Positions 1,009 through 18,973 of a stretch of 64,000 bases of DNA are shown here, piece after piece. Every line of letters starts with the position of its first letter. Positions within the stretch are counted from its first letter, which is position 1. The stretch is taken from NCBI GenBank assembly GCA_943788175.1, contig CALSPG010000007.1, positions 1 to 64,000 of the forward strand, in the 5' to 3' direction. Source of the stretch: an uncultured bacterium (GTDB taxonomy: Bacteria > Fidelibacterota > Marinisomatia > Marinisomatales > UBA1611). Position numbers and translations under genes: made by a program. The notes under the pieces were generated by a model. That model was given only the letters and a program-made list of their open reading frames with translations, was not told where the DNA came from and ran no database searches.

Positions 1009-2436
1009 CTAATCTCCCAATTCAAAACAAAAATCGTGTTCAAGTAAGTCACCTTCTTTATTTTTAACAAATTCACCTTTGTGATTTTTTACCTTCCACT
1101 CAATACATATATTATCTCCTCCATCATCAATAACCTCCATAATACCAAATTGACCGCGAACGCCGCTAGCACCATGCGAATATGGCCCGCCTTTGATACT
1201 TGGCTTTCTATCTAAAGGACCTGCGTGGAAAATCGGAATTGGAGCGCCACCATTTGTTGCATAATCACTATTTGTACCATCATCAATTGCCGCCATATGC
1301 GCATCTCCACTAACTATACAAACTGGTATATCATTCTTTTTAATAAAATTTGCAATGCCTGTTCTTTCCTCGGGATACCACCCCCAATTATCATGGTCAT
1401 CACACTCAAAACCTTTACTTGTCTTGATAATTTCACTTTGTTCACAATTAAAAGTACTTACATCTGGAGCACTCAAATAGGGGAAACTTGAATGCCAAAC
1501 AACGGCATTATTATTTGCTTTTGCAATCAATAATTGATCTTTAAACCAGTTTAGATGTTCATCCGATCCAAAATTAGAACCATCTTTTATTTTCTTACAG
1601 TTTGGTGAATCAAGGTTTTCACAATCGCCTTGAAACAATGGTCTTCTTTTTTCAGAGCGCAAATCAGTTAATAAATAAGTTATCCTGCCAACATTAAAAA
1701 CTTGTGATATAACCTCACCTTCTTCTTGAAAAGCTAAAGGATAATGTGGAACATAATTTTTATATGCGTGCCTTGCTTCTGATTGACAAGCGACCTTACC
1801 ATCTCCATTTGGAGCAAGCCCGGCACTATTGTTTGGGCCATAGTCATGGTCATCCCACATATAAGCTATCGGAATATTGTTATACAAACTTGATTGTTTT
1901 TTGGAGCCAAGAGTAGCACGAAAATATGTTAAAAAGTTGTCTTCACAATCTCTGTATATGTTCCCATAATGAAAGTCACCAAGCATTAAATAAAACTGCG
2001 AATTCTCTTCTCTTATCCGGTCAAATACCGGACTATTAGACCCCGTAGTAGCGCATGTTGCCATCGTTACTTTATACGAAAAAGGTTTATCACTATGAGT
2101 TTTAAACTTTCCAATTTGGTCTTTTTCTAAAGTCCCATTAATATTAAACCTATAGTAGTATGTTTGATTAGGTTTTAGTTTTATTAATTGTTCTTTTGCA
2201 AAGAAATTAGATTTTTCATCGATTGTTGTTGTTTTTGTATATCGTTTATTTTTTTTAAAATTTTTATTATCACTGTATTGAATCTTAATTTTAGCTTTTT
2301 TATCAGTTGCATAAGATATTACAGCGCTCTCAGATGTAACGGCACCAGACCAATAATATTCAATTTCACCAGCTTTTATAAAATTAAATAAAAACAAACT
2401 AAAAGCAACTAACTTAACATTTTTATAAATATCCAT
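1009..2436 (-). CDS. PhoD-like alkaline phosphatase/phosphodiesterase with N-terminal FN3-like domain, secreted
   Basis: Motifs LGDFHY, WDDHDYGPNNS, DLRS and SGDAH; hydrophobic N-terminal signal peptide. Confidence 0.85.
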   Translation of the reverse strand: MDIYKNVKLVAFSLFLFNFIKAGEIEYYWSGAVTSESAVISYATDKKAKIKIQYSDNKNFKKNKRYTKTTTIDEKSNFFAKEQLIKLKPNQTYYYRFNINGTLEKDQIGKFKTHSDKPFSYKVTMATCATTGSNSPVFDRIREENSQFYLMLGDFHYGNIYRDCEDNFLTYFRATLGSKKQSSLYNNIPIAYMWDDHDYGPNNSAGLAPNGDGKVACQSEARHAYKNYVPHYPLAFQEEGEVISQVFNVGRITYLLTDLRSEKRRPLFQGDCENLDSPNCKKIKDGSNFGSDEHLNWFKDQLLIAKANNNAVVWHSSFPYLSAPDVSTFNCEQSEIIKTSKGFECDDHDNWGWYPEERTGIANFIKKNDIPVCIVSGDAHMAAIDDGTNSDYATNGGAPIPIFHAGPLDRKPSIKGGPYSHGASGVRGQFGIMEVIDDGGDNICIEWKVKNHKGEFVKNKEGDLLEHDFCFELGD

Positions 2437-2439
2437 TTT

Positions 2440-3204
2440 CTACTCCAACATGTTTTCAAAAGATTTTACATATGTAAACCCGTTATATCTTTTTTTATCA
2501 TCATGCCTTATTGCCCACAAATAATACATGTGGAACCCTGGGGCAGATGTTTGACTATGAGTTTTACTATTTGTAATAGCGAGTACGTCACCATTTTTTA
2601 TTTTAAACACCTCTTCTCCTAACTCTCCATGTCCATATCCCCAACCTGGTGAAAGCTCATAATAATAGAGTTCAGATTGCGGATGATGATGAGGTGGATA
2701 ACTACTCCATTTTCCTGGAAAATTTAAAACCTCCCCGATGACAAGCTTTGCTTCTTTTGGAGAAATAGTATCATCAAAAGCTAAACGAACTAACCTATAA
2801 CAGGTATCATCTAATTGATCTTTACCTCTGTGTTCAGTGTCTATATCATTCGGTAAGTAAATTTTTCCTTTAAATTTTTCGTTGTTCGCTGTTTTAATTA
2901 TTGAGAACCGAGATTGCGTTTTAGATCTTATTTTAACACTTTCCCCAGGACTCATATGCACAACTGTGGGGTCACAATCAATCCAATTAGGACGATCGAA
3001 TTTTATAGTCTCCCCTTGAAATTCTATTTCTCCCTTTCCTTCTATCACAATGATAGCAATTTCTTTTTCATCATCTTTTAGTTCAAAACTTTCATTTTCA
3101 GCTGCAATGAAAATATCAAAATCCATCCCGGTTTTACCCTGAGTTTCAACATAGGAGTTGGTTCCCGATTTAAAACCATTACGATGTGGCGCTATCAATG
3201 TCAT
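2440..3204 (-). CDS. iolB: 5-deoxy-glucuronate isomerase
   Basis: KduI/IolB family motifs GKWSSYPPHHH, ELYYY, H..SAPGFHMYYLW; located in the iol operon. Confidence 0.9.
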   Translation of the reverse strand: MTLIAPHRNGFKSGTNSYVETQGKTGMDFDIFIAAENESFELKDDEKEIAIIVIEGKGEIEFQGETIKFDRPNWIDCDPTVVHMSPGESVKIRSKTQSRFSIIKTANNEKFKGKIYLPNDIDTEHRGKDQLDDTCYRLVRLAFDDTISPKEAKLVIGEVLNFPGKWSSYPPHHHPQSELYYYELSPGWGYGHGELGEEVFKIKNGDVLAITNSKTHSQTSAPGFHMYYLWAIRHDDKKRYNGFTYVKSFENMLE

Positions 3205-3207
3205 ATC

Positions 3208-4272
3208 CTATTTTCCTATCATTCTGCTTCTAATCAAAGCAATAAATTCATCATACCCCTCTAAAAATGTTTTCATAGTATGGACACAAGCACCAAAAGA
3301 TTCAAACTCATCTGTATTCATACCATCTTCATTATAAGCTTTATTAAAATCATCAAAATTACTTCTTAAAACATTCATAATATTTTCGTCAACTGGTTTA
3401 TCAACTCTGTTTTTAACCTCAATGTCTGAGTCATTAAACTTGTTCCACCACTCATAAGGCATACTTATAACTATATCACCCCCAACAATTTCTTTCCAAT
3501 GTAAGTCACATCGAAATGCTGCCGCTAAGAGTTTAGATTTATAATTTTTCTTTTTAAAAATAGAATAGGCATTTTTAAATATCGCTATTGAAGCCCAGTC
3601 TATTGTTTTAGGGTCTATATCAATTCCCTTGGATTCTCTTATTCTTTTTAAATGGTCATCAATTCTACCAACCATGATTGTAACATACGGTGTTACATTT
3701 TTCGTATCTATTCCATTTTCCTCAGCCTGAGCAAGGCCTCTTTCAATAGCCTCAGCGACTTGAACAGCTTGTGGAACCGTAAAACTAACTGTAGCATTTA
3801 CTGTTATACCGATAGCTGTAAGCATTTCCATAGCCTTAATTCCTGCAGGCAAAGCAGGACATTTGATTGCAATATTTGGTGCAAGGGATGCTAAATATTT
3901 TCCCTGTTCAAACATTGCTTCTGCATTTCTATAGTATTTAGGGTTTACCTGTAAAGATAGTTTTCCTTTTTGTTTATTTGTCTTTTCGTAGACAGGTAGC
4001 AAAATTTTCGCGGCTTTTTGACCAACCTCATCGCACAATAGCCATAAAATATCGTCTTCTGATGCTTGTTGATTTTTTGAAATCATATCATCTATTACAG
4101 GCATCCAAAATTCTGGATGGTTTTTTACACTGTTAAAAGTAATTACCGGGTTGGATGTAGCGCCTACTGCTCCCTCATCAAAAGCATGTTGAAGTTCAAC
4201 ATGGTCATTTGAATCGTTCCACCAATCAGAACCAAAGTCTGATGTTTGTTGCATTTTTGTTTTTTGATCCAT
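3208..4272 (-). CDS. Transaldolase/fructose-6-phosphate aldolase family enzyme with atypical active site
   Basis: WWNDS, ATSNP, Schiff-base Lys in IAIKCP, VNATVSF, VGRIDD, AAAFR. Confidence 0.85.
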   Translation of the reverse strand: MDQKTKMQQTSDFGSDWWNDSNDHVELQHAFDEGAVGATSNPVITFNSVKNHPEFWMPVIDDMISKNQQASEDDILWLLCDEVGQKAAKILLPVYEKTNKQKGKLSLQVNPKYYRNAEAMFEQGKYLASLAPNIAIKCPALPAGIKAMEMLTAIGITVNATVSFTVPQAVQVAEAIERGLAQAEENGIDTKNVTPYVTIMVGRIDDHLKRIRESKGIDIDPKTIDWASIAIFKNAYSIFKKKNYKSKLLAAAFRCDLHWKEIVGGDIVISMPYEWWNKFNDSDIEVKNRVDKPVDENIMNVLRSNFDDFNKAYNEDGMNTDEFESFGACVHTMKTFLEGYDEFIALIRSRMIGK

Positions 4273-5163
4273 TTAATTACTCCAAATTTTATCAAGATAT
4301 TTTTTTGATGATATTGCAAGCTCAAGCGGGTTGTATATCGCTGGGTCTTGTTCAGCTTCAACAATTATCCAACCTTCATATCCCGAAGCTTTAATAACAT
4401 TGCCAATAGAAACAAAATCAATACCCCCATCACCTGGAACGGTAAAGACTCCTTTTAAAACAGATTTTAAAAATGATTCACTTTGAAAGTTTATATTCTC
4501 GAGAACTTGAAGCCTTAAATCTTTAAAATGTATGTGTTTAATTCGTTGTAAATGTTTTTCAAAAAACGTAATTGGATTTACTCCAGCAAAATATAAGTGC
4601 CCTGTATCCGCGCAAAGATAAACCGAGGAAGGATCAGTCTTTGATAACATCGTTTCTATTTCAATTTCATTTTGAATATAATTCCCCATATGGTGATGAA
4701 ATGCCAAATTCATTCCAAGAGAGTTACAGATTTCTCCAGCCTTATTTAACGATTCTGCTAAAATATCATACTCATTTTCAGTACATACTGGTTTTAAATC
4801 AAGCGGACTATTCATTTCACCATGGACAGAGTTAGAGCATTCTGCAATGTTAATTACTTTAGCTCCAGCTTTATTTAAAAGTGAACATTTTTGTCTGACT
4901 TTTTCTAATTGAGAGTCAATGTCCTGTGATAAAAAAAATGTAGAGTGCCATGAAGAAGCAAGTTCTAAATTATGTTTTTTTAATATATTTTTTATGTCTT
5001 TATCGTTTGATGGAAATTTATTTCCTATTTCAGTACCCTTATATCCAGCTTCTGACATTTCGGATAAGATAGTATCGAGCGTGTAATCCCCACCTATTTC
5101 AGGCATGTCATCATTACTCCAATTAATTGGAGCAATTCCAAGTTTTATGTTTTGATCTAACAA
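4273..5163 (-). CDS. iolE: myo-inosose-2 dehydratase
   Basis: GIAPINWSNDD, FHHHMG, DTGH, HIHFKD, FTVPGDG, VEAEQDP. Confidence 0.95.
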   Translation of the reverse strand: MLDQNIKLGIAPINWSNDDMPEIGGDYTLDTILSEMSEAGYKGTEIGNKFPSNDKDIKNILKKHNLELASSWHSTFFLSQDIDSQLEKVRQKCSLLNKAGAKVINIAECSNSVHGEMNSPLDLKPVCTENEYDILAESLNKAGEICNSLGMNLAFHHHMGNYIQNEIEIETMLSKTDPSSVYLCADTGHLYFAGVNPITFFEKHLQRIKHIHFKDLRLQVLENINFQSESFLKSVLKGVFTVPGDGGIDFVSIGNVIKASGYEGWIIVEAEQDPAIYNPLELAISSKKYLDKIWSN

Positions 5164-5164
5164 G

Positions 5165-7021
5165 TTAGAAATCTCTTTCTTTTTTTATTTGTTGGTCATA
5201 TTGTGCTCTGACTTCTTTGACTTTTTCAGATGCTGATACTTCAGCAACTGGTACATCCCACCATGCACCATAACCCGGAACGCGTATATTTTTATCTACT
5301 AAAACTTCTATTAGTATAGAGTTGGTATTTTTTCTGGCTTTATTTAGAGCATTCTCAAATTCATTTTTTTCTTGAACCCTTACTGCATCTATTCCCATAG
5401 ATTTTGCATGCGCAACATAATCAACGTGTATCCTGTCTCCGGTGTAATCATTCGTATTTATTTCTCTTTTTTTATATTGGTTTCCGAAACCCTTACTGCC
5501 GAGACTTAAAGAAAGATTATTTATACTTCCAAAACCATGATTATTTACTAAAATGATAATCAATTTTTGGTCTTCTTGTACCGCTGTTACAATTTCTGAA
5601 TTCATCATTAAATAAGAACCATCTCCAACCATTACAAAAACGTCGCCCTCTTTTTTTGCCATCCGTATTCCAAGGCCACCTGCAACTTCATATCCCATAC
5701 ATGAATAACCATATTCCATATGATACTGGCTTCCGTTTTTTGTGCGCCAAAGTTTATGCATATCACCTGGAAGACTACCAGCCGCTCCAACCACTGTATC
5801 TTCTTTTTCCATAAAATTTGATACTATACCTATAACCTCACCTTGACTTATTTGAGGTTCATTATTTAAATCGAATATTCTATCTACTTCTTTATCCCAC
5901 GCCTCTTTTAGGGTAATAATTTCTTTTTCATATTTTTGAGAAACCGTAAAACCTTGACTTTTTAACCTATTATTTAAATCTTCAACACAAGATTTTGCAT
6001 CACCAACTAAAGACAAAGAAGAGTGTTTATATGCGTCAAAAGATGAAACATTAATGCTTATAAATTTGACATCTTTATTATTAAAAAGGGTTTTTGACGC
6101 AGTAGTAAAATCTGATAGTCTACTTCCAATGCATATGACGAGGTCCGCTTTTTGAGCCATCAGGTTTGCTGCATTTGTACCTGTAACTCCTATCGCACCT
6201 AAGTTTTGTTTATGGTTCCACGGTAACGAACCTTTTCCAGCTTGAGTTTCTGTTATTGGAATACCTGAGTTTTTACAAAAAGCACTTAACATATTTTCAG
6301 CATCTGAATAAATAATACCACCGCCAGCAATTATTAAAGGCCTTGATGATTTTTTAATAAGACTAGCTGCTTTCGCTAAAGAATTTTCTGATGGTACGTT
6401 TCTTGAGATTGACCAAACTTTTTTCTCAAAAAAGTTTTCTGGATAATGATAAGCCTCAGCTTGAACATCTTGTGGTAGGCAAATTGTAACAGCTCCTGTT
6501 TTTTCTGGGTTTGTCAACACGCGCATTGCTTCTACCAAAGAGGTAATTATTTGTTCTGGTCTGTTTATTCTATCCCAAAAGACACTTACGGGTTTAAAAC
6601 AATCATTTACCGAAACATCAAAAGAATTTGTATGCTCAAGTTGCTGTAAAACAGGACCTACATTTCTTCTACTAAAAATGTCACCAGGTAACAATAAAAC
6701 TGGTAATCTATTTATGGTAGCTCCTGCAGCAGCTGTAATCATATTCGTTGCACCTGGCCCGATAGATGTAGTGCAAGCATACGTTTTTAATCTTTTGTGT
6801 TGTTTGGCATACGCAACTGCGGCGTGGACCATGCCTTGCTCATTGCGAGGCAGGTAATGCTTTAGATCTCTATTTTGTTCTAAAGCCTCTCCAATTCCCG
6901 CAACATTTCCATGTCCAAATATTCCCCAAACGCCATTAATAAACTTATGTTCTTCTCCATCTCTTTCAACGTATTGTTGATTTAAAAACTGAATAGTTGC
7001 CTGGGCTGAAGTAAGCTTCAT
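5165..7021 (-). CDS. iolD: 3D-(3,5/4)-trihydroxycyclohexane-1,2-dione acylhydrolase (TPP-dependent)
   Basis: IFGHGNVAG, RNEQGM, TSIGPGATN, HMEYGYSCMGYE, GDGSYLM, WWDVPV. Confidence 0.97.
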   Translation of the reverse strand: MKLTSAQATIQFLNQQYVERDGEEHKFINGVWGIFGHGNVAGIGEALEQNRDLKHYLPRNEQGMVHAAVAYAKQHKRLKTYACTTSIGPGATNMITAAAGATINRLPVLLLPGDIFSRRNVGPVLQQLEHTNSFDVSVNDCFKPVSVFWDRINRPEQIITSLVEAMRVLTNPEKTGAVTICLPQDVQAEAYHYPENFFEKKVWSISRNVPSENSLAKAASLIKKSSRPLIIAGGGIIYSDAENMLSAFCKNSGIPITETQAGKGSLPWNHKQNLGAIGVTGTNAANLMAQKADLVICIGSRLSDFTTASKTLFNNKDVKFISINVSSFDAYKHSSLSLVGDAKSCVEDLNNRLKSQGFTVSQKYEKEIITLKEAWDKEVDRIFDLNNEPQISQGEVIGIVSNFMEKEDTVVGAAGSLPGDMHKLWRTKNGSQYHMEYGYSCMGYEVAGGLGIRMAKKEGDVFVMVGDGSYLMMNSEIVTAVQEDQKLIIILVNNHGFGSINNLSLSLGSKGFGNQYKKREINTNDYTGDRIHVDYVAHAKSMGIDAVRVQEKNEFENALNKARKNTNSILIEVLVDKNIRVPGYGAWWDVPVAEVSASEKVKEVRAQYDQQIKKERDF

Positions 7022-7034
7022 GAGTTACTATAGT

Positions 7035-8126
7035 TTAGTACCGGATGCTCCACTTATTATTATTTGATAGTGGAGGATTAAATGACGATGCTATGTTCTC
7101 CCAAGGCACTACTTTAAAATTCTGTTTACCTTTATCATTCTCATCATCTTGAACAATAAATGCACCTTGGCTAAAGTTTTTCCCTAGACTCATATTGCAA
7201 ACATCTATTCCATCTGTTGAACTGGTCCCATCGATATTTTCACTATCTACAATTGCAAACCTACCTATAAATTTGTTATCACCTTCTCTGGTATAAATAG
7301 CATATGTATTATCACCCTGGCTAGATGCGATTAAATACCCTGTGGTTTTACTACTATAATAAATCGTTAAACCTTCAACATCAGCAGCAAGGTTAGGACC
7401 AATAGAATCAATTAACACACCCTCTTCTGATGAATTGGGGTTTGCATTATATTTCCAAATACCATTTTCCTCTTCACCAAGATAAAGGTGACCTAAAATA
7501 TCATCAGCAACACAACCTTCAAGTTGCCCAGGTAGTTTTAATGTCCTAACAAGCTTTGCATCGACTTTGCCAGAACCATTGTCAAATAATTTATATTGCT
7601 CAACATTACCTTCTTTATCATTGATAATTGCATAGAAAGTATTTGTTGCAATGTCTTTATACATACAAGAACCATAAGCTTCAATACCAAGACTTATTTT
7701 CCTAGCGGCTATTGATATTAAAGATTTAGAATTTCCATCAACCCTATAAACACCTAGAGTATTTGAGACTCTCAGACCTGTTGTAACTATGTCATAGGCA
7801 TTAGATCCAACTTTCATTCCATATCGAATATCTACATTGTTTGCCTTTTCATTGCTGGTTGTAAAAACCTGATCACCATCCATATTATATACCCTAAGCC
7901 CCGGGTAGTTTTCGTCTTTATCGGTTCCAATAATTAAGGATAATGAGGGGTTTGTTGGATGCACCCAAACACAAGGATCATCCGCTACATCATCTCTACC
8001 AGTAACAGGTTCTGTTTCCATTGTAGCATTAACATATGCATCTGTTACACGAACTATATTATCTTTAGAACAAGCGGATAACATTAAAATAGCGCAAAGT
8101 ATTGAAAGATTAATTTTGTTTTTCAT
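7035..8126 (-). CDS. Beta-propeller phytase (single domain, lipoprotein)
   Basis: ETEPV..DVADDPCVW, GTDK, NNVD, EGCVAD, DVEGL, ASSQG, TDG, QNFKVVPW; lipobox LSAC. Confidence 0.93.
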   Translation of the reverse strand: MKNKINLSILCAILMLSACSKDNIVRVTDAYVNATMETEPVTGRDDVADDPCVWVHPTNPSLSLIIGTDKDENYPGLRVYNMDGDQVFTTSNEKANNVDIRYGMKVGSNAYDIVTTGLRVSNTLGVYRVDGNSKSLISIAARKISLGIEAYGSCMYKDIATNTFYAIINDKEGNVEQYKLFDNGSGKVDAKLVRTLKLPGQLEGCVADDILGHLYLGEEENGIWKYNANPNSSEEGVLIDSIGPNLAADVEGLTIYYSSKTTGYLIASSQGDNTYAIYTREGDNKFIGRFAIVDSENIDGTSSTDGIDVCNMSLGKNFSQGAFIVQDDENDKGKQNFKVVPWENIASSFNPPLSNNNKWSIRY

Positions 8127-8220: not shown

Positions 8221-8253
8221 AACAAAGGCCTCAATAAAATCGAGGCCTTTGTT
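8221..8253. terminator. Intrinsic terminator after the TonB-dependent receptor
   Basis: 12-bp inverted repeat AACAAAGGCCTC / GAGGCCTTTGTT with 9-nt loop, T-rich tail on the minus strand. Confidence 0.8.
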
Positions 8254-8279: not shown

Positions 8280-11178
8280 TTAGAATCTATAGTTTGTTCC
8301 AATTTTTATTGTAGAACCATACACTTCTTTTTCAACCGGCTTACTAGCATCTCCCATGAAATACACATGAGGCACATTTGTAATGTTAAGTATATCAGCA
8401 AAAAGAGTAATTTTATTATTTAAGTTATAACTCAAAGAAAGATCTAAACGGTTTGCCGGGTCATAATAGATATCTTCATCTTTATCTCCACCAACTTCAA
8501 CCAAATATTGATCTGCAATTGACTGTGAAAACCTAGCTGTTAACTTACTTGTTTCATAAGCTAAACTTAAGTTTCCAGTACTAGCCGCTTGCCCGGGGAA
8601 TGTTGATTTCTCGCGAGAATCACCATAATCGGCCTCTGAGTCTGTTGAAGTGTAGTTAAAGTAAAGAGACATTGCACTAAGAGGGCCTGGTAAGAAATCA
8701 AGATTTTTTACAAAATTCATTTCCCAACCACTTAATGTTGCATTGTTTCCATTTACTGGCATACTCACTTCATCATACACTTTTGAGCCACCTCGAATTG
8801 AAACATCTTGCAGCGTTGATGTGTAGATATAGTTATCAATAGACTTACTAAAATAACCGAAAGAAAACACACCTAAACCCGCTGGGTAATACTCTAACAT
8901 AAGATCAATGTTTTGCGAATGCGCAGATTCAAGCTCGGGATTTCCAGCTTCAGCATCATCACCGTCAGTTGCAATAAAAGGAACCAATGCTGCAAAGTCA
9001 GCTCTTGCAATACTCTCTGTGTATGCTAAACGAACTAAAGCTTGGTCATTAACCGCATACCTAACATGAGCCATTGGAAGAACATTTGTGTATTCTTTAG
9101 TAACTTTTTGAGCAGTGAAGTATGCCGCAAGACTTTCATCAATAGTTCCTTCATTATCTTCAGCATCTTCTACAGAACCAGCCCAAGAATTATAAGTACT
9201 AGATGTCTTTTCCATCCTCGCACCACCGATAAAATTAATCTTGCCAAATTTCATATCTGCCATTCCGTAAAATGCAGTTATGTCTTCTGTCGCGTCCCAG
9301 GTTTCAAGAATAGCGTCTTCATACATTGGCAATATTTCATATGACCCAAGGTTTGCGCTCATGTGGTCGCGAACTTTTTTAACATCTAGACCATTCGTAT
9401 GAACATAATTTCCATCCATGTATTCATCACCTTCAATATCCATATTAAATCCTTGCATAATGAGGTCATCGTCACCGCCCCATTCCCATACTTCCGCACC
9501 AGATTTATCAGATTTTTTATCTTTTTTTGAAAGCTTAGCACCTAATTTGACTTCACCATTTCCACCTGCAATTGAAAGAGGCATGGACATATTAAATGCA
9601 ATCACCTGATCGTCGCCTGAAACTAAATTCCCGTTTGGACTTTTTTTGTTCGGAATGTAATTACCTTCAAGCTCGATTGCATCTAGTTCATACTTTGATA
9701 AATCGTGCTGGTCAAAAGCCGCGCCATCTTCATCTGTAAAACTTGTGATTTGCGGGTGATTATTATCACTGAACTCGTAGTTCATATTTATATCTTTTAC
9801 TACAAACTCAGCATTTACTGAAGGGTCTCTTAGTTCTTCAGCATATGATTTTGTAAATGCCCAATCTAAACCAAGCTTACCCAACGCGTGGTCACCACCA
9901 AGAGAAAAGCTATTAATTTTTGATATTGAAGATCTGCTTTTAAGCTCCCTGGCTATTCTAGCAAGGTTCGCTGTTCCAGCAGTAGATGTAACATTGCTAT
10001 ACCCAGACCCAGGAGTTTCTTCATCAACAGATTTATCAAAACGATATCTCAACCTATTTCTGTTTTCATTATCTGTATATGTGTTTGATATAAGATTAAA
10101 ATAGAGTTTTGAATCGTTTGCCAAGTTTATAATCTAAACTTGTGGTAACACCAACTCTCTCCCTACTCAACGAATAGTTCTTTAATTGCATGTCATTTAT
10201 GATCACACCATCTGTTTCATCGACAACATAGGTTTCATCCTCTTCACTGTCTACGACATCTGAAACCGTCTCATATTTGTCATTCCACTCTAATTCAATA
10301 TTATCAGTTTTCATATCATTAAACTCATAACTACCAGAGACAATCAAACCTAAGTTTCCATCCATAAACTGGTTACCATAAGTAAATGCACCCATACTAC
10401 CACTTTTACCATAAAGAGGTCTATGTCCGCCAGCAACTTTTGCCTCCATAAACTGACCATCATAATCGAAAGCATTTTTTGTGATAAGATTAACGTGTCC
10501 ACCAATTGCATCAGCATCCATATCTGGAGTTATGGCCTTCGTAACCTCAACAGAACCAAGTGAATAACTCGGTATAATGTCTAAAGAAATTTTCCTAACA
10601 TCTTCAGGACTTGGTACTTTAACACCATTAATTGTAGTTGTGTTTAAAGAAGCTTCCGCACCTCTAATTTGAACATAACGACCTTCACCATGGTCACTTT
10701 CTAGAGCAACACCTGGCAATCTTTGTAGAACATCAGCAACATTCTGATCAGGGAATTTTTCCATCTGGTCTCTTGAAACTACGTTTTTAATATTCCCAGC
10801 GCTCTTTTGTTGACTTAGCGCTTTAGCTTGCCCTTGTGCAAGTCCAGTAACATTTACACCTTCCATTGAAACATAATCAACATCAAGAGAGACGTCAACC
10901 ATAACATCATCAGACCCAACCGTTACTGAATCTGAAAAATCAGCATAGCCAACATAGGTTACCTTCAAAGTGTAGTCCCCTTCTGGAACACCACCTATTT
11001 TATAATTCCCAAACCTGTCTGATGAGGTTCCGTAATTGGTACCATCTAACATCACGTTAGCTCCTGGAAGAAAATCCCCAGAACTGGAACCGGTTACCTT
11101 ACCACTCACATTTCCCGCATATGCAAGATGGGTAAACGACAATAAAAAAGTTATAATTGATATCGATTTAATATTCAT
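8280..11178 (-). CDS. TonB-dependent receptor, probable phytate/inositol-phosphate transporter (split by a frameshift near 10122)
   Basis: ORF 10096-11178: signal peptide, CarboxypepD_reg-like domain and plug (FPDQNVADVLQRLPG, GEGRYVQIRG, DADAIGG). ORF 8280-10124: beta-barrel ending in NYRF. Removing one base at ..YKL/ANDSKL.. joins them. Confidence 0.9.
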
Positions 11179-11382: not shown

Positions 11383-12462
11383 ATGATAATAAATAATAAA
11401 AGCTCAGTTCCAAAATACTTTCAACTGCAAACATGGCTACAAGACAGGATTGAACAGGGTTACTATGGTACCAATGAAAAAATTCCAACTGAAAATGAAT
11501 TAGTTAAGTTAAGCGGGTTGTCTAGGGCAACTGTACGGCAAGCATTAAAAAATTTAGAGAACGATGGCTATATTATAAGAAAAAAAAGGGTTGGCTCTTT
11601 TGTGCAAAAAACAAGAAAGCAAACCAATGGAATTACAACTATTGGGTTACTTATTCCCGATATTAGATCTGGTTATGCGCCTATTCTAGCAAGGGGTGCG
11701 GAAGATGAAGCAATTAAAAATGATGTAAACTTAATCCTCTGTAATACAGATGACACTCTAAGCCAAGCAAACTATCATATTGAACGATTGATTAAGATGT
11801 CAATTAGTGGTGTCATTTATATACCTGTTGCAGCAAGCGATAAAAAAAATCTACAGATTATAAATAAACTGAAAAGAAAAAACATACCTGTTGTCTTGGC
11901 AGATAGAGGCATTCAAGGTTCAGATTTCGATTTTGTTACAACTAATAATTTTGAAGGGTCCCGAGAAATTACTCAACACCTTATTAATAGAGGACATGAG
12001 AAAATAGCTTTTTTAAGTAATAAGGTGTACAGTACGGAAAGATTGAGATATGATGGTTTTATATCAAAATTGAAAGAATTAAAAATTGCTCAAGACCCAT
12101 CAATAACAATAATTGATAAAAGCGCATTTAATGTTAACAGATATCTAAATCATGCTCATAAAATTTTAAAAAACAGAAGAAAATTTACTGCTGTGTATGC
12201 TGGGCATGATAGAATCGCTTTATTGTTTTATGCTGCTGCTAAAAATTTAGGACTCAATGTTCCAGAAGATTTTTCACTAGTCGGCTATGATAATATGCCT
12301 TTGACAACAGTTTCCTTAACAACTATGCATCAACCTATTTATGAAATAGGTCAAGAAAGTATAAAACTAATTGTAGCCAGAATAAATAACAGGTCAATTA
12401 AAACTAAAAATATTATACTGAAATCAAACCTAATAAAAAGAAATTCAGTAAAGAGTATTTAA
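11383..12462 (+). CDS. AraR-like repressor (GntR wHTH + LacI-type effector-binding domain), probable inositol/phytate regulator
   Basis: PKYFQL..KIPTENEL..SRATVRQAL N-terminus; C-terminal PEDFSLVGYD, LTTMHQP. Confidence 0.9.
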   Translation: MIINNKSSVPKYFQLQTWLQDRIEQGYYGTNEKIPTENELVKLSGLSRATVRQALKNLENDGYIIRKKRVGSFVQKTRKQTNGITTIGLLIPDIRSGYAPILARGAEDEAIKNDVNLILCNTDDTLSQANYHIERLIKMSISGVIYIPVAASDKKNLQIINKLKRKNIPVVLADRGIQGSDFDFVTTNNFEGSREITQHLINRGHEKIAFLSNKVYSTERLRYDGFISKLKELKIAQDPSITIIDKSAFNVNRYLNHAHKILKNRRKFTAVYAGHDRIALLFYAAAKNLGLNVPEDFSLVGYDNMPLTTVSLTTMHQPIYEIGQESIKLIVARINNRSIKTKNIILKSNLIKRNSVKSI

Positions 12463-13471
12463 TGCGTCACCGAATAATTAATGTGGGACTTATTGGCTTG
12501 GGGCGTATCGGGAAAATGCATGCTAAAAATATCTGCGAAAAACTGCCTTCTATTAGAATTTAAAAGGTATAGCTGACCCAAAACCAGATCTAGATTTCAT
12601 TCAAAACCTTGGAGAAATAACAGTACATAAAAATGCCCAAGAAATTATTTCTGATAAAAATATTGATGCTGTTATTATTTCTTCTCCAACGCCAACACAT
12701 TTTAATCTGATTAAAAAATGCCTCAGAAACAATAAACATGTTTTCTGCGAAAAGCCTATTTCTTTTTCAAAAAACGAAATAAATGAGATCATTGACCTAA
12801 TGGTTATTCAGAAATCATTTGTCCAAGTTGGATTAAATAGAAGGTTTGATGAAGAATTTATTTTATTAAAAGAAAAAATAAAAGAAGGCCTAATTGGTAA
12901 AACACAAATAATACACATTACAAACCATGATAGTACTATCCCAAGATTCAAGTTTTTAAAAACATCTGGTGGCATGCTGTTTGACCTTTGCATCCATGAT
13001 TTTGATATGTTAACATTTATAACAGGTAAAAAAATAAAAGAAATATATGTTAATGGTTCTGTTTTCATAGAGCCAAGGTTAAAAGACATAAATGATATCG
13101 ATAATGCAATAATTACCCTAGAGCTTACAAATGGAGTTTTATGCACTATTGATAGCTCAAGACAAACTCATTTTGGATATGATCAAAGAATTGAAGTTTT
13201 TGGCTCAAAAGGAATGATCTCTATTGACAACAAACCAAACCAGCTATTTTTATTAAGTGACGAATCAAGAACAATTAAATCAAAAATTAAAAAGTCTTTT
13301 GTTGAAAGATATGAATCTTCATATATCAATGAACTTGAACATTTTTATAAATGTGTAATAAGCGATAAAAGTCCAATCGTGGGTCCAGAAAATATTTTAG
13401 ATGCGATACATATTGCGACCGCAGGAACCAAATCGCTAGAGCTAAACAGACCTATCATGGTGGAAAGATGA
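12462..13471 (+). CDS. Gfo/Idh/MocA inositol dehydrogenase, IolG-like paralog 1 (frameshift near 12555)
   Basis: ATG at 12462 overlaps the upstream stop (TAATG) and gives MRHRIINVGLIGLGRIGKMHA. After the frameshift: LKGIADP..HVFCEKP, then ORF 12800 with GLNRRFD, SGGMLFDLCIHDFD, GYDQRIEVFG. Confidence 0.85.
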
Positions 13472-14460
13472 ATAAAATTAATTTGGCCATTCTAGGGTTA
13501 GGTAGAATAGGGAAAGTGCATGCAGAAAATATTATTTCTTTAAATGAGTGTAATCTAAAAATTATAATTGACCCTGTATCAGATTTTGATAACAATTTCA
13601 CTGACCTAGGTATAAAACAATCAAAACATTTTGATGATCTTTTAAATGAAAATGATATTGATGGTGTTATAATATGTTCACCATCTAAATACCACGTTAG
13701 CCAAATTAAAAGTCTCTCAGACTTGACAAAGAATATTTTTTGTGAAAAACCTTTAGGCTTATCTATCGAAGAAATCCTTGATGTTAAGTCACTAGTAACA
13801 AAAAAAAGTCTCAATCTGCATATAGGCTTTAACAGAAGATATGATCCGGATTTTTCTGAATTGAAAAGACATATTTTAAATAATGAGATTGGTGACTTGC
13901 ATATGATCAAAATAACCTCTCGAGATCCCGCGCCACCACCAATTAGTTATATCAAAAAGTCTGGGGGAATATTCTTAGACATGACTATTCATGATTTTGA
14001 TATGGTTAAATATTTATCTGGATCAGAAATAGCTGAATTGTATGTTAAAGGTGGCTGCTTTGTTGATCCAGAAATAGAAAAAGCGAACGATGTTGATACA
14101 GCTATTATTAATATGAGTTTAAAAAACGGTGTTTTAGCAACAATCAATAATTCAAGGCAGGCAGTTTATGGTTACGACCAACGAATCGAAGTTCTAGGTT
14201 CAAAGGGAGTTTTAAAAGTTGAAAATAAGCTTTTAAATAAAGTTGTAAAAGGGACAAAAGAAGGATTTATATCATCAAACCCTCAAAACTTTTTTATTGA
14301 TAGATACGAACAATCATATAAAAAAGAATTATTGAATTTTGTACAATCAATAAAAGGCGACATTGTTGATTATGCAGATGCAGATGATGGTCTACATGCT
14401 CTTAAGGCAGGATTAGCCGCAAATAATTCATTATTAAACAACACTCCTTTCTTGGTTTAA
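13468..14460 (+). CDS. iolG: myo-inositol 2-dehydrogenase
   Basis: GLGRIG, CEKP, GFNRRYDP, ITSRDPAPPP, SGGIFLDMTIHDFD, YGYDQRIEV. Confidence 0.9.
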   Translation: MNKINLAILGLGRIGKVHAENIISLNECNLKIIIDPVSDFDNNFTDLGIKQSKHFDDLLNENDIDGVIICSPSKYHVSQIKSLSDLTKNIFCEKPLGLSIEEILDVKSLVTKKSLNLHIGFNRRYDPDFSELKRHILNNEIGDLHMIKITSRDPAPPPISYIKKSGGIFLDMTIHDFDMVKYLSGSEIAELYVKGGCFVDPEIEKANDVDTAIINMSLKNGVLATINNSRQAVYGYDQRIEVLGSKGVLKVENKLLNKVVKGTKEGFISSNPQNFFIDRYEQSYKKELLNFVQSIKGDIVDYADADDGLHALKAGLAANNSLLNNTPFLV

Positions 14461-14465
14461 ATGAT

Positions 14466-15440
14466 ATGCTAAGAACAAAAAAAGAAAATGTTTTTAGCCT
14501 TGTTATTATTTTCATTTTCTTATCTTGCTCTGGTATAGAAAAACAAAAAGATAAACCATTAAAAAAAGTTTCAATTAATATGGTAACTCATGGCCAAGCA
14601 ACTGATCCCTTTTGGAGCGTAGTTAGTAATGGCGCTAAAGACGCAGCTAAAGAACTTGGAATAGATTTTTATTATCAATCACCACAAAATTTTGATATGA
14701 TAACCATGTCACAAATAATTGATGCTGTTGTTTCAACTAACCCTGATGGTATCATTGTTTCTGTCCCAGACGTAGCAGCTTTAAAGAAGAGTATTTTAGC
14801 TGCATCAAAAAAAAATATACCTATCATCGTAATTAATGCTGGTAGCGAAATTATGGAAGAGGTTGATATCCTCACTTATGTAGGACAAAGTGAATATGAA
14901 GCAGGAATGAAAGCAGCAAAAGAATTAATAAAATACAATATTACAACTGCTCTATGTGTAAATCATGAAATTGGAAACATTAGCCTAGATAAGAGAGAAC
15001 AGGGTTTTAGAAAAGTTTTAAAAGAAAATAATATCGATGTGAAAACAATACCTATTGATGCCTCAGATCCATCAGTGGCTAGAGAAACAATTAGAGCATA
15101 CCTCTCTATAAACAACACGATAGATGGAATACTAACGCTCGGTCCGCTTGGAGCAATACCCATTATGAGTTTATTAAAAACCGTTGATAAAGAAAAAAAA
15201 ATCAAGTTAGCGACCTTTGATTTTACTCCTGAAATAATTGATGGTATTATGAATGATCAAATCGTTTTCGCTTTAGATCAGCAACAATATCTTCAAGGAT
15301 ACTTACCGGTTATATTAATGAATCTATATATAACCAATAAAAACACCCCCGCATTTGAAAAACTAGAAACGGGGCCTAGTATAATTAATATTAAAAATGC
15401 ACAAGATGTATTGGCTTTGAGCAAAAAAGGGAAAAGATAA
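14466..15440 (+). CDS. Sugar (probably inositol) ABC transporter substrate-binding lipoprotein
   Basis: Lipobox FLSC; VTHGQATDPFWSVV, DQQQYLQGYLP. Confidence 0.9.
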   Translation: MLRTKKENVFSLVIIFIFLSCSGIEKQKDKPLKKVSINMVTHGQATDPFWSVVSNGAKDAAKELGIDFYYQSPQNFDMITMSQIIDAVVSTNPDGIIVSVPDVAALKKSILAASKKNIPIIVINAGSEIMEEVDILTYVGQSEYEAGMKAAKELIKYNITTALCVNHEIGNISLDKREQGFRKVLKENNIDVKTIPIDASDPSVARETIRAYLSINNTIDGILTLGPLGAIPIMSLLKTVDKEKKIKLATFDFTPEIIDGIMNDQIVFALDQQQYLQGYLPVILMNLYITNKNTPAFEKLETGPSIINIKNAQDVLALSKKGKR

Positions 15441-16435
15441 TTTTATCTAAAAAAATATTTTCAAGACCAGAAACAGGTGCTTTACTCGGTCTCGTGTTCG
15501 TATGGTTATTTTTTGCGATTTTTGCTCATAACGGGTTCCTATCTATTTATGGTGTGAAGTCTTACCTCCAAGTTTCATCTGAAATTGGAATTCTTGCAGT
15601 AGGTGTTGCACTATTAATGATAGCTGGAGAATTTGATTTATCTATCGGGTCACTAATTGGTTTCTCAAGTATGTCAATAACATTACTAACAATCGAAGCA
15701 AATATGCCAATGCCTCTAGCATCTGTTTTGACTTTAATAATGACAATTTTTATTGGATATTGTAATGGTCTTACGGTCGTAAAAAGTGGCTTACCCTCTT
15801 TTATTATCACACTTGGATCTTTGTTTATTGTAAGGGGTTTAACCATTGCTGTAACAAAACTAATTACTGGTAGAACTCAAATTAGCGGAATTGATGAATC
15901 AAGTGGTTATGATTTTATGCATTCAATATTCAGCAGCAGCGTAAAAATAGCTGATGTTAATTTTCCTGTATCAATCTTCTGGTGGATCTTATTTGTCTTT
16001 TTAGGATACTTTATGTTAAACCAAACACAAATAGGAAATTGGATCTTTGCTACCGGTGCGTCAAAAGAGAGTTCAAAACTAATGGGCATACCTATTAGAA
16101 AAATAAAGGTTTCACTTTTCATGTTAACCGCATTTTGTGCCTGGTTTATTGCGGTGATTCAAGTAACTACTTTTAATGGCGCTGATGTTTTAAGGGGTGA
16201 GCAAAAAGAATTTATTTCAATAATCGCAGCTGTGATTGGAGGGACCTTACTCACAGGTGGATATGGTTCAATCATTGGTGTTATGATAGGAGCTTTAATT
16301 TTTGGTATTGTAAAGCAGGGAATAATTTTTGCAGGTATTGACGCTGATTGGTTCCAAGTGTTTATGGGTGTGATGTTGGTTTCTGCCGTTTTAGTTAATG
16401 GCAGTTTTAAAAAAAAGTACATTCATGAATTCTAA
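15437..16435 (+). CDS. Sugar ABC transporter permease (start probably upstream of 15494)
   Basis: IAGEFDLSIG, LPSFIITLG, AAVIGGTLLTGGYGS; the family motif RPETGAL lies in frame upstream of the GTG at 15494. Confidence 0.9.
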   Translation: MILSKKIFSRPETGALLGLVFVWLFFAIFAHNGFLSIYGVKSYLQVSSEIGILAVGVALLMIAGEFDLSIGSLIGFSSMSITLLTIEANMPMPLASVLTLIMTIFIGYCNGLTVVKSGLPSFIITLGSLFIVRGLTIAVTKLITGRTQISGIDESSGYDFMHSIFSSSVKIADVNFPVSIFWWILFVFLGYFMLNQTQIGNWIFATGASKESSKLMGIPIRKIKVSLFMLTAFCAWFIAVIQVTTFNGADVLRGEQKEFISIIAAVIGGTLLTGGYGSIIGVMIGALIFGIVKQGIIFAGIDADWFQVFMGVMLVSAVLVNGSFKKKYIHEF

Positions 16436-17156
16436 CAGACTAGATCTTCATAATATTTATAAAAACTTTGGGAACGTAAAAGCATTAAAAAATGTTTCTA
16501 TGAGTACTAACTCTGGACAAATTAATTGCATCCTTGGCGATAACGGAGCGGGGAAATCAACCTTAGTAAATATTATTTCTGGAGTCTTTCAGCAAGATGA
16601 AGGAGACTATAAAATTAACGATGAAATCGTTTCTTTCTCTAGCCCTATGGAAGCAATGAATGCTGGTATATCAACAGTATATCAAAATTTAGCTATCATA
16701 CCTATTATGAATATTTATAGAAATTTTTTTTTAGGCCAGGAACCAACAAAAAAAGGTTTTTTTAAAACCTTTGATAAAGAGTTTGCAACACGAACAACCA
16801 TTGAACAGTTAGAAAAATTTGATATTAAAATAGAAAACCCTAAAAGAGCAGCTGGTACACTTTCAGGCGGTGAAAGACAAATACTCGCAATTGCGCGAGC
16901 ACTATATTTTGGGGCGAAAATTCTCATTCTTGATGAACCTACTTCTGCTCTAGGGGTTAAAGAATCTAATAAAGTAGTAAATCAAATTATTTCACTTAAA
17001 AATCAAAATATTAATGTGATTCTCATTTCTCACAACATTGAGCAGGCATATATGCTCAGTGATAAATTTTTTATTATTAAAAATGGGGACATGATAGACC
17101 AGTTTGAAAAAAATCAAACATCTGTTAATGATTTGAGAAAAATTTTAGGAAAATAA
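16425..17156 (+). CDS. Sugar ABC transporter ATP-binding protein (single NBD)
   Basis: GDNGAGKST, LSGGERQ, ILDEPT; ATG at 16425 preferred as start. Confidence 0.92.
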   Translation: MNSNRLDLHNIYKNFGNVKALKNVSMSTNSGQINCILGDNGAGKSTLVNIISGVFQQDEGDYKINDEIVSFSSPMEAMNAGISTVYQNLAIIPIMNIYRNFFLGQEPTKKGFFKTFDKEFATRTTIEQLEKFDIKIENPKRAAGTLSGGERQILAIARALYFGAKILILDEPTSALGVKESNKVVNQIISLKNQNINVILISHNIEQAYMLSDKFFIIKNGDMIDQFEKNQTSVNDLRKILGK

Positions 17157-17189: not shown

Positions 17190-18071
17190 ATGGAAAAAAT
17201 AGGAGTAATTGGCCTTGGAAATATGGGTATGGGTATTGCAAAAAATGTAATCAATAACGGCTATAAAACAATGGGGTATGACCTACGTGATTCATGTTTA
17301 ACAGAATTAAAAAAAAATGGTGGTGACGCTGCAGAAAGTGTAGAAAAAGTAGGAGAATCTTGTGATGTGGTTTTTGTAATGGTAATGAATGGAGATCAAG
17401 TTAAGGATGTTGTTACAAAACTATCACCAGGGTTAAAGAACAGAGGTACAATAATTATAACAGCAACTATTACACCAGAAGAAGTAAGAGTTGCTCATAA
17501 AATTGCGCAAGAAAACAATATAAAAATGATTGATAGTCCTGTTAGTGGAGGCCTGCAGGGAGCACACGAAGGGACATTAACACTTATGACAGCAGCAGAA
17601 AACGAAGTGTTTGATAAATACAAACCTATTCTAGAATCAATATCAAAAAATATGTTTCATGTGGGTGTTAACATTGGAGATGGCCAAACCGTAAAGGCAT
17701 CTTTACAGGTTTTTATTGGCGCGACCTTCACAGCAATTTTTGAATCATTAGTTCTGGGTTCCAAAGCGGGAATCGATGGTAAAATTCTTTATGATGTTTT
17801 TAGCTCTAGTGGTGTAAGTAGTCCATTATTTAAAAATTGTGCCAGCTTAATAATGGATAGGAAATTTGAAAATACTGGAAGCCACATATCAACAATGCAT
17901 AAAGACCTTGGCATAAGCATGAGTATGGCTAAACAAAATGGCGTTCCTATGTTTACGGCTGCCGCAGCGTATGAATTATTTCAAGCTGGAATTTCAATGT
18001 ATCCGGAAGGTGATAATTGGTCTATTGTTAAATTGTTAGAAAAAATGTCTGATACAAAAGTTGAATGGTAA
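17190..18071 (+). CDS. NAD(P)-dependent beta-hydroxyacid dehydrogenase (MmsB/GarR/LtnD/YihU family)
   Basis: GVIGLGNMGMGIA, DSPVSGG, catalytic Lys in GQTVKA, KDL. Confidence 0.88.
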   Translation: MEKIGVIGLGNMGMGIAKNVINNGYKTMGYDLRDSCLTELKKNGGDAAESVEKVGESCDVVFVMVMNGDQVKDVVTKLSPGLKNRGTIIITATITPEEVRVAHKIAQENNIKMIDSPVSGGLQGAHEGTLTLMTAAENEVFDKYKPILESISKNMFHVGVNIGDGQTVKASLQVFIGATFTAIFESLVLGSKAGIDGKILYDVFSSSGVSSPLFKNCASLIMDRKFENTGSHISTMHKDLGISMSMAKQNGVPMFTAAAAYELFQAGISMYPEGDNWSIVKLLEKMSDTKVEW

Positions 18072-18106
18072 TTAATTAATTTTTAAAAAAAATAAAGGAA
18101 GAGAAA

Positions 18107-18973
18107 ATGGCAAAACTAGGTGTAATTACAGATGGAATAAGTACAGATTTTGAACACGCTTTAAAAATAATGAGTCAAAACAATTTAGATCAAGCAGAGC
18201 TACAATATCTATGGGATAAAGAAGTTGGTGATTTTGATAAATCTGAAATTGATAAAATTGAAGAACTTTTAAAAAAATATAACATGGATGTGTCTTGTAT
18301 CTCTCGTCATAATTTTGCAGGTGTTGGCGTACATGAAGTCAGTATTGGCGATGATACATACAACCATCATATGGAAAAATTAAAAGAGTGTATTGATATG
18401 GCCAAGAGATTCAATTCTCCCTTAGTGAGAATAATGAGTTTTAGAAAAGAAATGGTTTTGTTTGGTGAGCACGGTGCAGAAAAATGGAATGTTAGTGATG
18501 GTGCCTGGAATAAATTAGTAGAACTTTTAACTCCTGTCGTTAAGTTAGCAAAAGAATCAAATATTATGCTTGTAGTTGAAACAGGAAACAACGCAATGAT
18601 AACATCCTGTTTTCTAGGTAGAAAATTGATTGATGATTTAGATACAAAACATTTAAAAGTACTATGGGATCCTGCAAACGCTCTTTATTGTGGAGAAAAT
18701 CCAAGTAAGAATGCATTAGATTCCATGGAAGGCGGGTACCTTGGTCATGTGCACATGAAAGATGTTGAAGTTTCTATTCATCAGGCGAAAATTAAATGTG
18801 TAGCGCTTGGTGAAGGGCAAATGGCACCTCACCTACAGACAATATCAGAACGATTGGACCAAATAGGTTATGATGGTTCCATGTCTTTAGAGAGTGTTTA
18901 CAGACCAACCGAAGGAAATTTTGAAGATGGCTTTAATGCCTCCATAACAAAATTCAAAAATCTGTATTCGTAA
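18107..18973 (+). CDS. Sugar phosphate isomerase/epimerase, xylose-isomerase-like TIM barrel (AP_endonuc_2)
   Basis: LVVET, WDPAN, HVHMKD, LGEG, SLE metal-ligand pattern. Confidence 0.8.
   Translation: MAKLGVITDGISTDFEHALKIMSQNNLDQAELQYLWDKEVGDFDKSEIDKIEELLKKYNMDVSCISRHNFAGVGVHEVSIGDDTYNHHMEKLKECIDMAKRFNSPLVRIMSFRKEMVLFGEHGAEKWNVSDGAWNKLVELLTPVVKLAKESNIMLVVETGNNAMITSCFLGRKLIDDLDTKHLKVLWDPANALYCGENPSKNALDSMEGGYLGHVHMKDVEVSIHQAKIKCVALGEGQMAPHLQTISERLDQIGYDGSMSLESVYRPTEGNFEDGFNASITKFKNLYS

Follow-up and report, generated by a model that had tools for sequence, protein, structure and literature searches.

The window analysed here, the first 64 kb of contig 7 in the genome of an uncultured Marinisomatales bacterium (2.27 Mb in 12 contigs, 92% complete), carries an operon for inositol catabolism in which a transaldolase-family (TAL) gene is placed among the iol genes. 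We consider the TAL-like enzyme very probably to be an integral step of this inositol pathway. As for the reaction, the best-supported mechanism, which we regard as on balance probable from the sequences, is that the enzyme would cleave unphosphorylated 2-deoxy-5-keto-D-gluconate (DKG) in place of the two enzymes IolC and IolJ. The initial annotation of this stretch had put forward the same replacement. Membership of the gene cluster, fusions to IolE, the position of the TAL gene directly before IolA elsewhere and the finding that IolC and IolJ are mostly not found all speak for it, while in two parts of that proposal corrections are needed: the lack of iolA is probably an artefact of the assembly, and a kinase-free route is not secure.

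The operon lies on the minus strand and runs from a phytase gene through iolD, iolE, the TAL gene and an iolB-type gene to a PhoD-like phosphatase gene, with successive gaps of 13, 1, 0, 3 and 3 nt in the open reading frame (ORF) calls, which bears out the tight iolD-iolE-TAL-iolB arrangement first noticed here. The TAL gene (3208-4272) encodes a protein of 354 amino acids, which we refer to as Q/M type. It is preceded directly by iolE (4273-5163), the gene of myo-inosose-2 dehydratase, and by iolD (5165-7021), the gene of the ring-opening hydrolase of the thiamine pyrophosphate (TPP) type. On the plus strand, iolG (13468-14460, model match at 13474-14445) encodes inositol 2-dehydrogenase. All three of these iol proteins exceeded the cut-offs of their canonical equivalog models, with 373.7 bits against 290 for IolE (TIGR04379), 934 against 715 for IolD (TIGR04377) and 389.8 against 355 for IolG (TIGR04380). 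The gene on the other side of the TAL gene (2440-3204, minus strand) belongs to the KduI/IolB family by PF04962 (156 bits) and reached 90.6 bits on the IolB model TIGR04378, whose cut-off is 205; we take it as a divergent IolB, presumed to be the 5-deoxy-glucuronate isomerase. An iolB-type gene came after the TAL gene in all 11 loci compared.

The canonical myo-inositol route of the Bacillus subtilis type consists of IolG, IolE, IolD, IolB, IolC, IolJ and IolA. The TAL gene is the only one left in the clusters between the six-carbon product of IolB, DKG, and the three-carbon substrate of IolA, malonate semialdehyde, and therefore the TAL-like enzyme is the likely catalyst of the DKG step.

To see how firmly the TAL gene belongs to this pathway, we relied on 301 genomes sampled evenly across the phylum, in which TAL orthologues had 58-100% identity and the next best match had 34%. 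We found iolD in 13 genomes and the TAL orthologue likewise in 13, with 12 genomes common to the two sets, and a genome with the TAL gene but no full iolD (G221) turned out to carry a truncated iolD at a contig end beside iolE-TAL-iolB. Overall, 13 of the 14 genomes with iolD or TAL have both; they represent 7 families, and related genomes among them are not independent. The order iolE-TAL-iolB was kept wherever the contig allows, at TAL identities of 62-97% (some of these loci are contigs of the same genomes), with one exception, G216, where iolD-iolE is followed by TAL-iolB only after 16.7 kb, with an ABC importer and the MFS gene in between. Among 41 related genomes, a PF00923 gene was present in only 8, and the four with long TALs (G000, G001, G003 and G026) were exactly the four with IolD. 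A neighbourhood analysis of this kind had been proposed at the outset, and it revealed the TAL gene as a fixed member of the iol cluster in 7 families of the phylum as well as on distant metagenome contigs.

A full HMMER scan of 1.84 billion representative proteins returned 3228 relatives of the TAL protein, 197 of them at an E-value of 1e-30 or better. Among the best 150, 80 proteins were full-length; at the position of E. coli TalB residue 96 these had Gln in 73 cases and Glu in none, and at the position of residue 178 they had Met in 58. Judged by these alignments, the Q/M-type TALs are a large, separate clade, whose named members come from metagenome-assembled genomes of Chloroflexota and Oligoflexales. 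The top match of the scan was an IolE-TAL fusion protein. Four such fusions were found among the longer proteins (645-695 amino acids, TAL part 42-52% identical); the IolE domain exceeded the equivalog cut-off in three of them (341.4, 344.8 and 382.0 bits) and stayed under it in the fourth (170.3 bits).

In addition, a scan of metagenome contigs gave 543 relatives, the best 80 of which were kept as loci; the two search patterns used favour close relatives. Neighbouring genes were identified by tblastn, the queries being the window proteins and reference sequences drawn from the loci, and loci with a TAL of less than 58% identity (67 of the 80) were treated as distant. The full 12-residue active-site signature of the window TAL was present in 77 of the 80 loci and was identical whether or not a locus showed iol genes. 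Across all 80 loci we counted IolD in 34, IolE in 23, IolB in 16, IolG in 20, MMSDH (IolA) in 14, a SauS-like acylating aldehyde dehydrogenase in 5, IolC in 3 and a TM0415-type kinase in 2. The 67 distant loci contained IolD in 24, MMSDH in 13, IolC in 3 and no TM0415-type kinase, and for those 22 of them that extend at least 3 kb to both sides the counts were 10 for IolD, 8 for MMSDH and 2 for IolC. Three loci (L074, L078 and L081) carry iolG-iolB-iolD-iolE-TAL-iolA on one strand, with the MMSDH of L074 at 643.7 bits (cut-off 448.5), and L076 has the same order from iolB on. One recurrent ORF family of the loci, cluster 5, was discarded because it consisted of frames antisense to the TAL gene on GC-rich contigs.

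Two kinds of neighbour were seen near some of these TAL genes as separate observations. A SauS-like CoA-acylating aldehyde dehydrogenase stands in place of MMSDH in L097, L080, L084, L094 and L106, directly after the TAL gene in L097 (5007-6380; 561 bits, cut-off 600), and may offer another way of handling malonate semialdehyde. Class III aminotransferases lie between or beside TAL and MMSDH in L061 (8496-9803) and L101 (5561-8261), which could reflect a shared node of malonate semialdehyde and beta-alanine or a variant for amino-cyclitols.

The initial annotation had noted that iolC, iolJ and iolA are missing and had called for a search of the whole genome for the first two. No protein of the genome exceeded the IolC cut-off (TIGR04382); the best score was 72 bits against 300, for a gene outside the window and 300 kb away. 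The sole PF01116 gene of the genome encodes a 360-amino-acid aldolase on contig C1, away from the operon, and PF01116 genes were found in only 6 of the 14 iol genomes. With this 360-amino-acid aldolase as tblastn query, neither the 80 metagenome loci nor 23 Marinimicrobia loci yielded a class II aldolase-like gene; a distant IolJ could escape such a search. IolC exceeded the cut-off in one of the 13 related iol genomes (G258), on an orphan contig of 2.4 kb with a GC content of 46.6%, compared with 39.6-42.6% for three other contigs examined (two with iol genes and one more). It was also present in 3 of the 67 distant loci, so that nearly all of these genomes and loci yielded neither IolC nor IolJ.

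The third absence is probably only apparent. Although MMSDH/IolA above the cut-off was not found in this assembly, a locus with a near-identical TAL (L050; 97% identity, same gene order) has an intact MFS gene and, some 0.8 kb beyond it, an MMSDH gene scoring 519.5 bits (cut-off 448.5), and MMSDH is present in 10 of the 14 related iol genomes, the same-genus G003 among them. Because the contig of the window begins inside the MFS gene, the lack of iolA in the window probably reflects the assembly and not the biology. The segment of L050 that is missing from the window's contig (14853-18041, past the transporter) holds an ORF of 192 amino acids with no family, the MMSDH gene and a convergent glycerate kinase gene.

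We then turned to the TAL protein itself. The PF00923 profile matched it with 144.8 bits (gathering score 27), which places it in the family, and it is the only PF00923 (TAL/FSA) protein of the genome. Its scores were under every NCBIfam cut-off for transaldolases and fructose-6-phosphate aldolases (FSA), the best being 115.7 bits against 367 for NF002881, with 50 against 245.95 for the FSA model TIGR00875, and a protein atlas search returned clusters named 'transaldolase family protein' and nothing more specific. The AlphaFold model (pLDDT 95.8) has a TIM-barrel transaldolase fold, and the nearest solved structures found by Foldseek were the transaldolases of Neisseria gonorrhoeae and Corynebacterium glutamicum (TM 0.82-0.83, 20-21% identity).

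In TalB, Asp17, Asn35, Lys132, Asn154 and Thr156 hold the dihydroxyacetone unit, and the two arginines of the anion site, Arg181 and Arg228, bind the anion. An alignment with TalB of E. coli K-12 and with FsaA indicated that all seven are kept, as Asp20, Asn41, Lys137, Asn159 and Thr161 and as Arg203 and Arg254, so that both the Schiff-base lysine (Lys137) and the catalytic aspartate (Asp20) are in place. Four positions are changed: Glu96 of TalB is Gln108 (Gln59 in FSA), Ser176 is Thr198, Phe178 is Met200 (Tyr131 in FSA) and Ser226 is Ala252. The protein has neither the Glu96 and Phe178 pair of classical transaldolases nor the complete Gln59 and Tyr131 pair of FSA, since the Gln is present and the Tyr position is occupied by Met. 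Every residue assignment previously made by eye, from the retained Asp, Asn and Lys to the Gln, Met and Ala found in place of Glu, Phe/Tyr and Ser, agreed with this alignment.

These residues are consistent with DKG as donor. Viewed from its keto end, DKG is the 5-deoxy analogue of fructuronate, with a free CH2OH-CO end, the D-fructose configuration at the scissile bond and an anionic far end, and the donors of TAL and FSA enzymes share this geometry, including the free CH2OH-CO end with its free C1 hydroxyl. In the route that we propose, the phytase and the PhoD-like phosphatase would release inositol from phytate, and IolG, IolE, IolD and the IolB-type isomerase would produce DKG. The C5 keto group of unphosphorylated DKG would then form a Schiff base on Lys137 while its C1 carboxylate would sit in the retained Arg203/Arg254 anion site, the C3-C4 bond would be cut, and malonate semialdehyde would be released and passed to IolA. 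The dihydroxyacetone unit would be moved to an aldehyde, for which glyceraldehyde 3-phosphate is the most plausible candidate, to give fructose 6-phosphate; less likely, free dihydroxyacetone would be released. The steps replaced would be those of the ATP-dependent kinase IolC and the class II aldolase IolJ. We infer the substrate, the lack of a prior phosphorylation and the acceptor.

Regarding the choice between transfer and release, mutant work has indicated that FSA needs its Tyr to release dihydroxyacetone. Since the protein has Met at this Tyr position, transfer to an acceptor is somewhat likelier than release. No Dak1 dihydroxyacetone kinase was found in the genome, which does have a glycerol kinase, and the pattern of Dak1 and glycerol kinase does not separate transfer from release.

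Taken together, we tentatively suggest that inositol catabolism has a widespread branch, not described before, in Marinimicrobia and in soil, peat and microbial-mat bacteria. In this branch, a Q/M-type TAL would move dihydroxyacetone from unphosphorylated DKG to glyceraldehyde 3-phosphate, yielding fructose 6-phosphate and malonate semialdehyde without ATP; in the ocean the branch would be wired to phytate uptake, and TM0415-type kinases would act with pyrophosphate on inositol phosphates and not in the cleavage. In all its parts this picture falls somewhat short of probable. In our literature search, which left subscription journals largely outside, no paper connected a transaldolase with the degradation of inositol or SAR406/Marinimicrobia with phytate, and no assay of a member of the Q/M-type clade came to light.

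Several observations weigh against the cleavage of unphosphorylated DKG by the TAL-like enzyme. One genome, G184, has iolD-iolE, with a further 3.5 kb before the contig stops, and no TAL gene was found in it. In about half of the distant metagenome loci the contig shows no iol gene, and many of these contigs are short. A true IolC (357 bits, cut-off 300) stands beside the TAL gene in 3 of the 67 distant loci, and in one of them, L112, the TAL gene is accompanied by IolC, IolB and a Cgl0159-type aldolase, that is, by the full canonical set. The genome is 92% complete and the stretch contains at least three frameshifts, which bears on absences. With regard to the chemistry, the enzyme has neither Glu as in TalB nor Tyr as in FSA for a proton relay. 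The remaining points concern kinases of the TM0415 type. In 8 related genomes such a kinase, of a kind that we call type B, is located upstream of iolD in the order kinase, oxidoreductase, iolD, iolE, and pyrophosphate-driven phosphorylation of DKG or of dihydroxyacetone may take place in these type B clusters.

TM0415 is a pyrophosphate-dependent kinase of the ribokinase family from Thermotoga maritima that makes inositol 1-phosphate; its published Km for inositol is 12 mM, and the authors suspect that its true acceptor is a different intermediate of the pathway (PMC5931981). The window contains one homologue, a PfkB kinase on the plus strand (21836-22720) that matched PDB entries 7e4l, 1vk4 and 5ysp with E-values of 5.5e-39 to 3.2e-37; we call it type A. 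It keeps the residues Lys171, Phe221, Arg229, Arg232 and Met266 of the pyrophosphate signature, as read from the alignment against the residue list in PMC5931981, and it is probably pyrophosphate-dependent. Four residues of the acceptor site differ from TM0415 (I76E, N78I, S89V and L116S, read from the alignment), a pattern that resembles homologue No. 49 of the same paper, a protein with no known true acceptor (PMC5931981). The earlier remark that the sole PfkB kinase belongs to a different subfamily was correct, in that it is of the TM0415 type and not of the IolC type. We also considered whether it could be a hidden IolC, which is ruled out by its TM0415-type character and by the fact that 12 of its 16 orthologues are found in genomes without iolD, near a GlpT-like transporter.

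Type A was present in 16 of the 301 genomes, 4 with and 12 without iolD. In five genomes without iolD or TAL (L133-L138) it occurs with a GlpT-like transporter and two iolG-like genes, often accompanied by a TonB receptor and a phytase-like gene. Type A is not tied to iolD or to the TAL gene and instead accompanies the GlpT-like transporter; it may have a role in processing inositol phosphates after import, using pyrophosphate and perhaps working in the reverse direction. Thirteen genomes carry the type B paralogue, which is 34-38% identical, and iolD is present in 10 of these. The oxidoreductase beside type B is a short GFO/IDH/MocA protein, seen in L038, L039, L043, L046 (2840-4455), L047 and L048. 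With a TM0415-type kinase beside iolD in 8 related genomes and its paralogue in the window, the label 'kinase-free' given to the pathway is not secure.

These kinases give substance to the first alternative, that phosphorylation persists: a non-orthologous kinase, of the TM0415 type or unrecognised, would make DKG 6-phosphate, and the TAL-like enzyme would be a Schiff-base aldolase that replaces IolJ only and yields dihydroxyacetone phosphate and malonate semialdehyde, so that the route would be ATP-free but not kinase-free. The adjacency of type B to iolD, the preference of type B for genomes with iolD and the altered acceptor-site residues, which resemble those of homologue No. 49, all fit this idea, as does locus L091, in which IolB-IolA-TAL-IolC are found with no aldolase seen on the contig. 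However, type B is missing from the window's own genome and from G003, neither type is present in G261 or G221, and all four keep the TAL operon. Because TAL operons occur without type B, or without any TM0415-type kinase, the TAL step is independent of these kinases. The association of type A with the GlpT-like transporter instead of TAL and the absence of TM0415-type kinases from the distant TAL loci point the same way. Furthermore, known TAL and FSA enzymes act on donors whose C1 hydroxyl is free, and the present protein retains the residues for holding it. We therefore regard a phosphorylated donor as unlikely.

A second alternative, which we consider distinctly unlikely, changes the donor to a related keto sugar acid or a cyclitol-derived intermediate, from another inositol isomer or an amino-cyclitol, so that DKG would not be the main donor. 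It is suggested by the score of the IolB-type protein far under the IolB equivalog cut-off, by class III aminotransferases, SDRs or the SauS-like acylating aldehyde dehydrogenase beside TAL in some distant loci, and by the many distant contigs on which no iol gene is visible. Nevertheless, IolD and IolE are clear equivalogs here, the order iolB-iolD-iolE-TAL-iolA leaves the conversion of DKG to malonate semialdehyde as the sole open step, and the active-site signature does not change with the visibility of iol genes. An ordinary pentose phosphate transaldolase riding in the operon, with a role such as balancing the sugar phosphate pools while inositol is consumed, would agree with the fold of long transaldolases and with a sole TAL/FSA gene in the genome, but we rejected a housekeeping transaldolase as our preferred interpretation and hold this possibility to be very improbable in view of scores under all NCBIfam transaldolase cut-offs, the replaced catalytic Glu and Phe, the 33 of 41 relatives that do without any TAL/FSA gene, the co-occurrence with iolD in 13 of 14 genomes and the four IolE fusions.

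The first gene of the operon encodes a beta-propeller phytase (7035-8126, minus strand; PF02333, 346 bits) and the last one the PhoD-like phosphatase (1009-2436, minus strand; PF09423 and PF16655). At the start of the contig (1-859, minus strand) lies a GlpT/UhpC-like organophosphate MFS transporter gene, identified by profile matches, which is frameshifted and cut by the contig start. Upstream of the phytase gene, a TonB-dependent receptor gene (8280-11178, minus strand; profile matches and related loci) is separated from it by a terminator-like hairpin with a 15-bp stem (8221-8253, minus strand), which was found by a consensus scan alone. A scan for sigma-70-type promoters stayed at chance level, with 46 found against 51 expected. 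Divergent from the operon, on the plus strand, are a regulator gene with a GntR helix-turn-helix and a LacI-type sugar-binding domain (11383-12462; profile match), a first iolG-like dehydrogenase gene whose N-terminal part is frameshifted (12477-13471), iolG itself and the binding protein, permease and ATPase genes of a sugar ABC importer (14466-17156; profile matches).

Beyond the importer, the plus strand continues with a HIBADH-family dehydrogenase, a xylose-isomerase-like barrel, a TRAP transporter, a weak PfkB kinase and a GntP permease. The dehydrogenase and the barrel protein are encoded at 17190-18973; the closest model for the former is L-threonate dehydrogenase (206 bits, under the cut-off), it was not seen in other loci, and it could serve in malonate semialdehyde reduction. 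After the GntP permease, a glycerophosphodiester phosphodiesterase and a penicillin-amidase-family gene follow (24073-27254). A homologue of the phosphodiesterase is near the operon in L053 too, in keeping with a broader region for the scavenging of organophosphates.

A single additional base near 10121-10123, within 10096-10124, divides the receptor gene, although the gene is one frame of 961-965 amino acids in six related loci (L050, L024, L055, L057, L083 and L052), and two contigs from RNA libraries (X4 and X6) are without the extra base at 10121/10123. The split is therefore probably an assembly error and not a pseudogene. Similarly, the frameshifted first iolG-like gene (12477-12800) and the MFS gene (1-859) are intact in L050, with 343 and 419 amino acids, and at least three frameshifts within 13 kb suggest indel errors in this assembly. 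The operon is covered at 95% identity or more by contigs from marine RNA libraries of three studies, which span the iolB/TAL, TAL/iolE and iolD/phytase junctions; these are contigs and not a single transcript, and DNA carry-over is possible.

If the proposed TAL step is true, a textbook pathway would gain a second ending, and the transaldolase family a member with a new donor and a catalytic set without Glu or Tyr. It would explain the many genomes that have iolD, iolE and iolB but no iolC or iolJ and are now scored as unable to use inositol. Deep-ocean SAR406 bacteria would be tied to the turnover of phytate, and with it of phosphorus and carbon, and a transaldolase that accepts keto-acid donors would be of interest for biocatalysis.

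Compared with known systems, the locus would represent a new variant ending on the known inositol pathway, canonical as far as DKG and then, by analogy, like the sulfofructose transaldolase step. It shares with the canonical iol pathway the IolG, IolE and IolD equivalogs and a presumed isomerase of the IolB family, has IolA in near-identical and related loci, and is expected to have the same start and end metabolites. Unlike that pathway, it shows no IolC or IolJ, has the TAL gene between iolE and iolB (between iolE and iolA in other phyla) and is joined to genes for phytate uptake and dephosphorylation; the TAL protein is unrelated to IolJ. TM0415 is homologous to the window PfkB kinase and to its iolD-adjacent paralogue, all three being found in inositol gene clusters, and the five pyrophosphate-signature residues were read as kept in the window PfkB, whereas several acceptor-site residues differ. 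E. coli TalB and FsaA have the same fold, the Schiff-base lysine and the equivalents of Asp17, Asn35, Asn154, Thr156, Arg181 and Arg228, with the Gln as in FSA, but are only 24-26% identical to the TAL protein, which has Met at the Phe178/Tyr131 position, Thr for Ser176 and Ala for Ser226. The best functional analogy is the sulfoquinovose transaldolase pathway, in which a TAL-family enzyme reportedly cleaves unphosphorylated 6-deoxy-6-sulfofructose after an aldose-ketose isomerase and with no kinase (PMC7491151). There too the substrate is a ketohexose analogue with an anionic far end and a kinase is spared, although the sulfofructose transaldolase (BmSF-TAL, PDB 8bc3) has about 220 amino acids against 354 here, matched with 32 bits over residues 104-175 only and belongs to a different subfamily.

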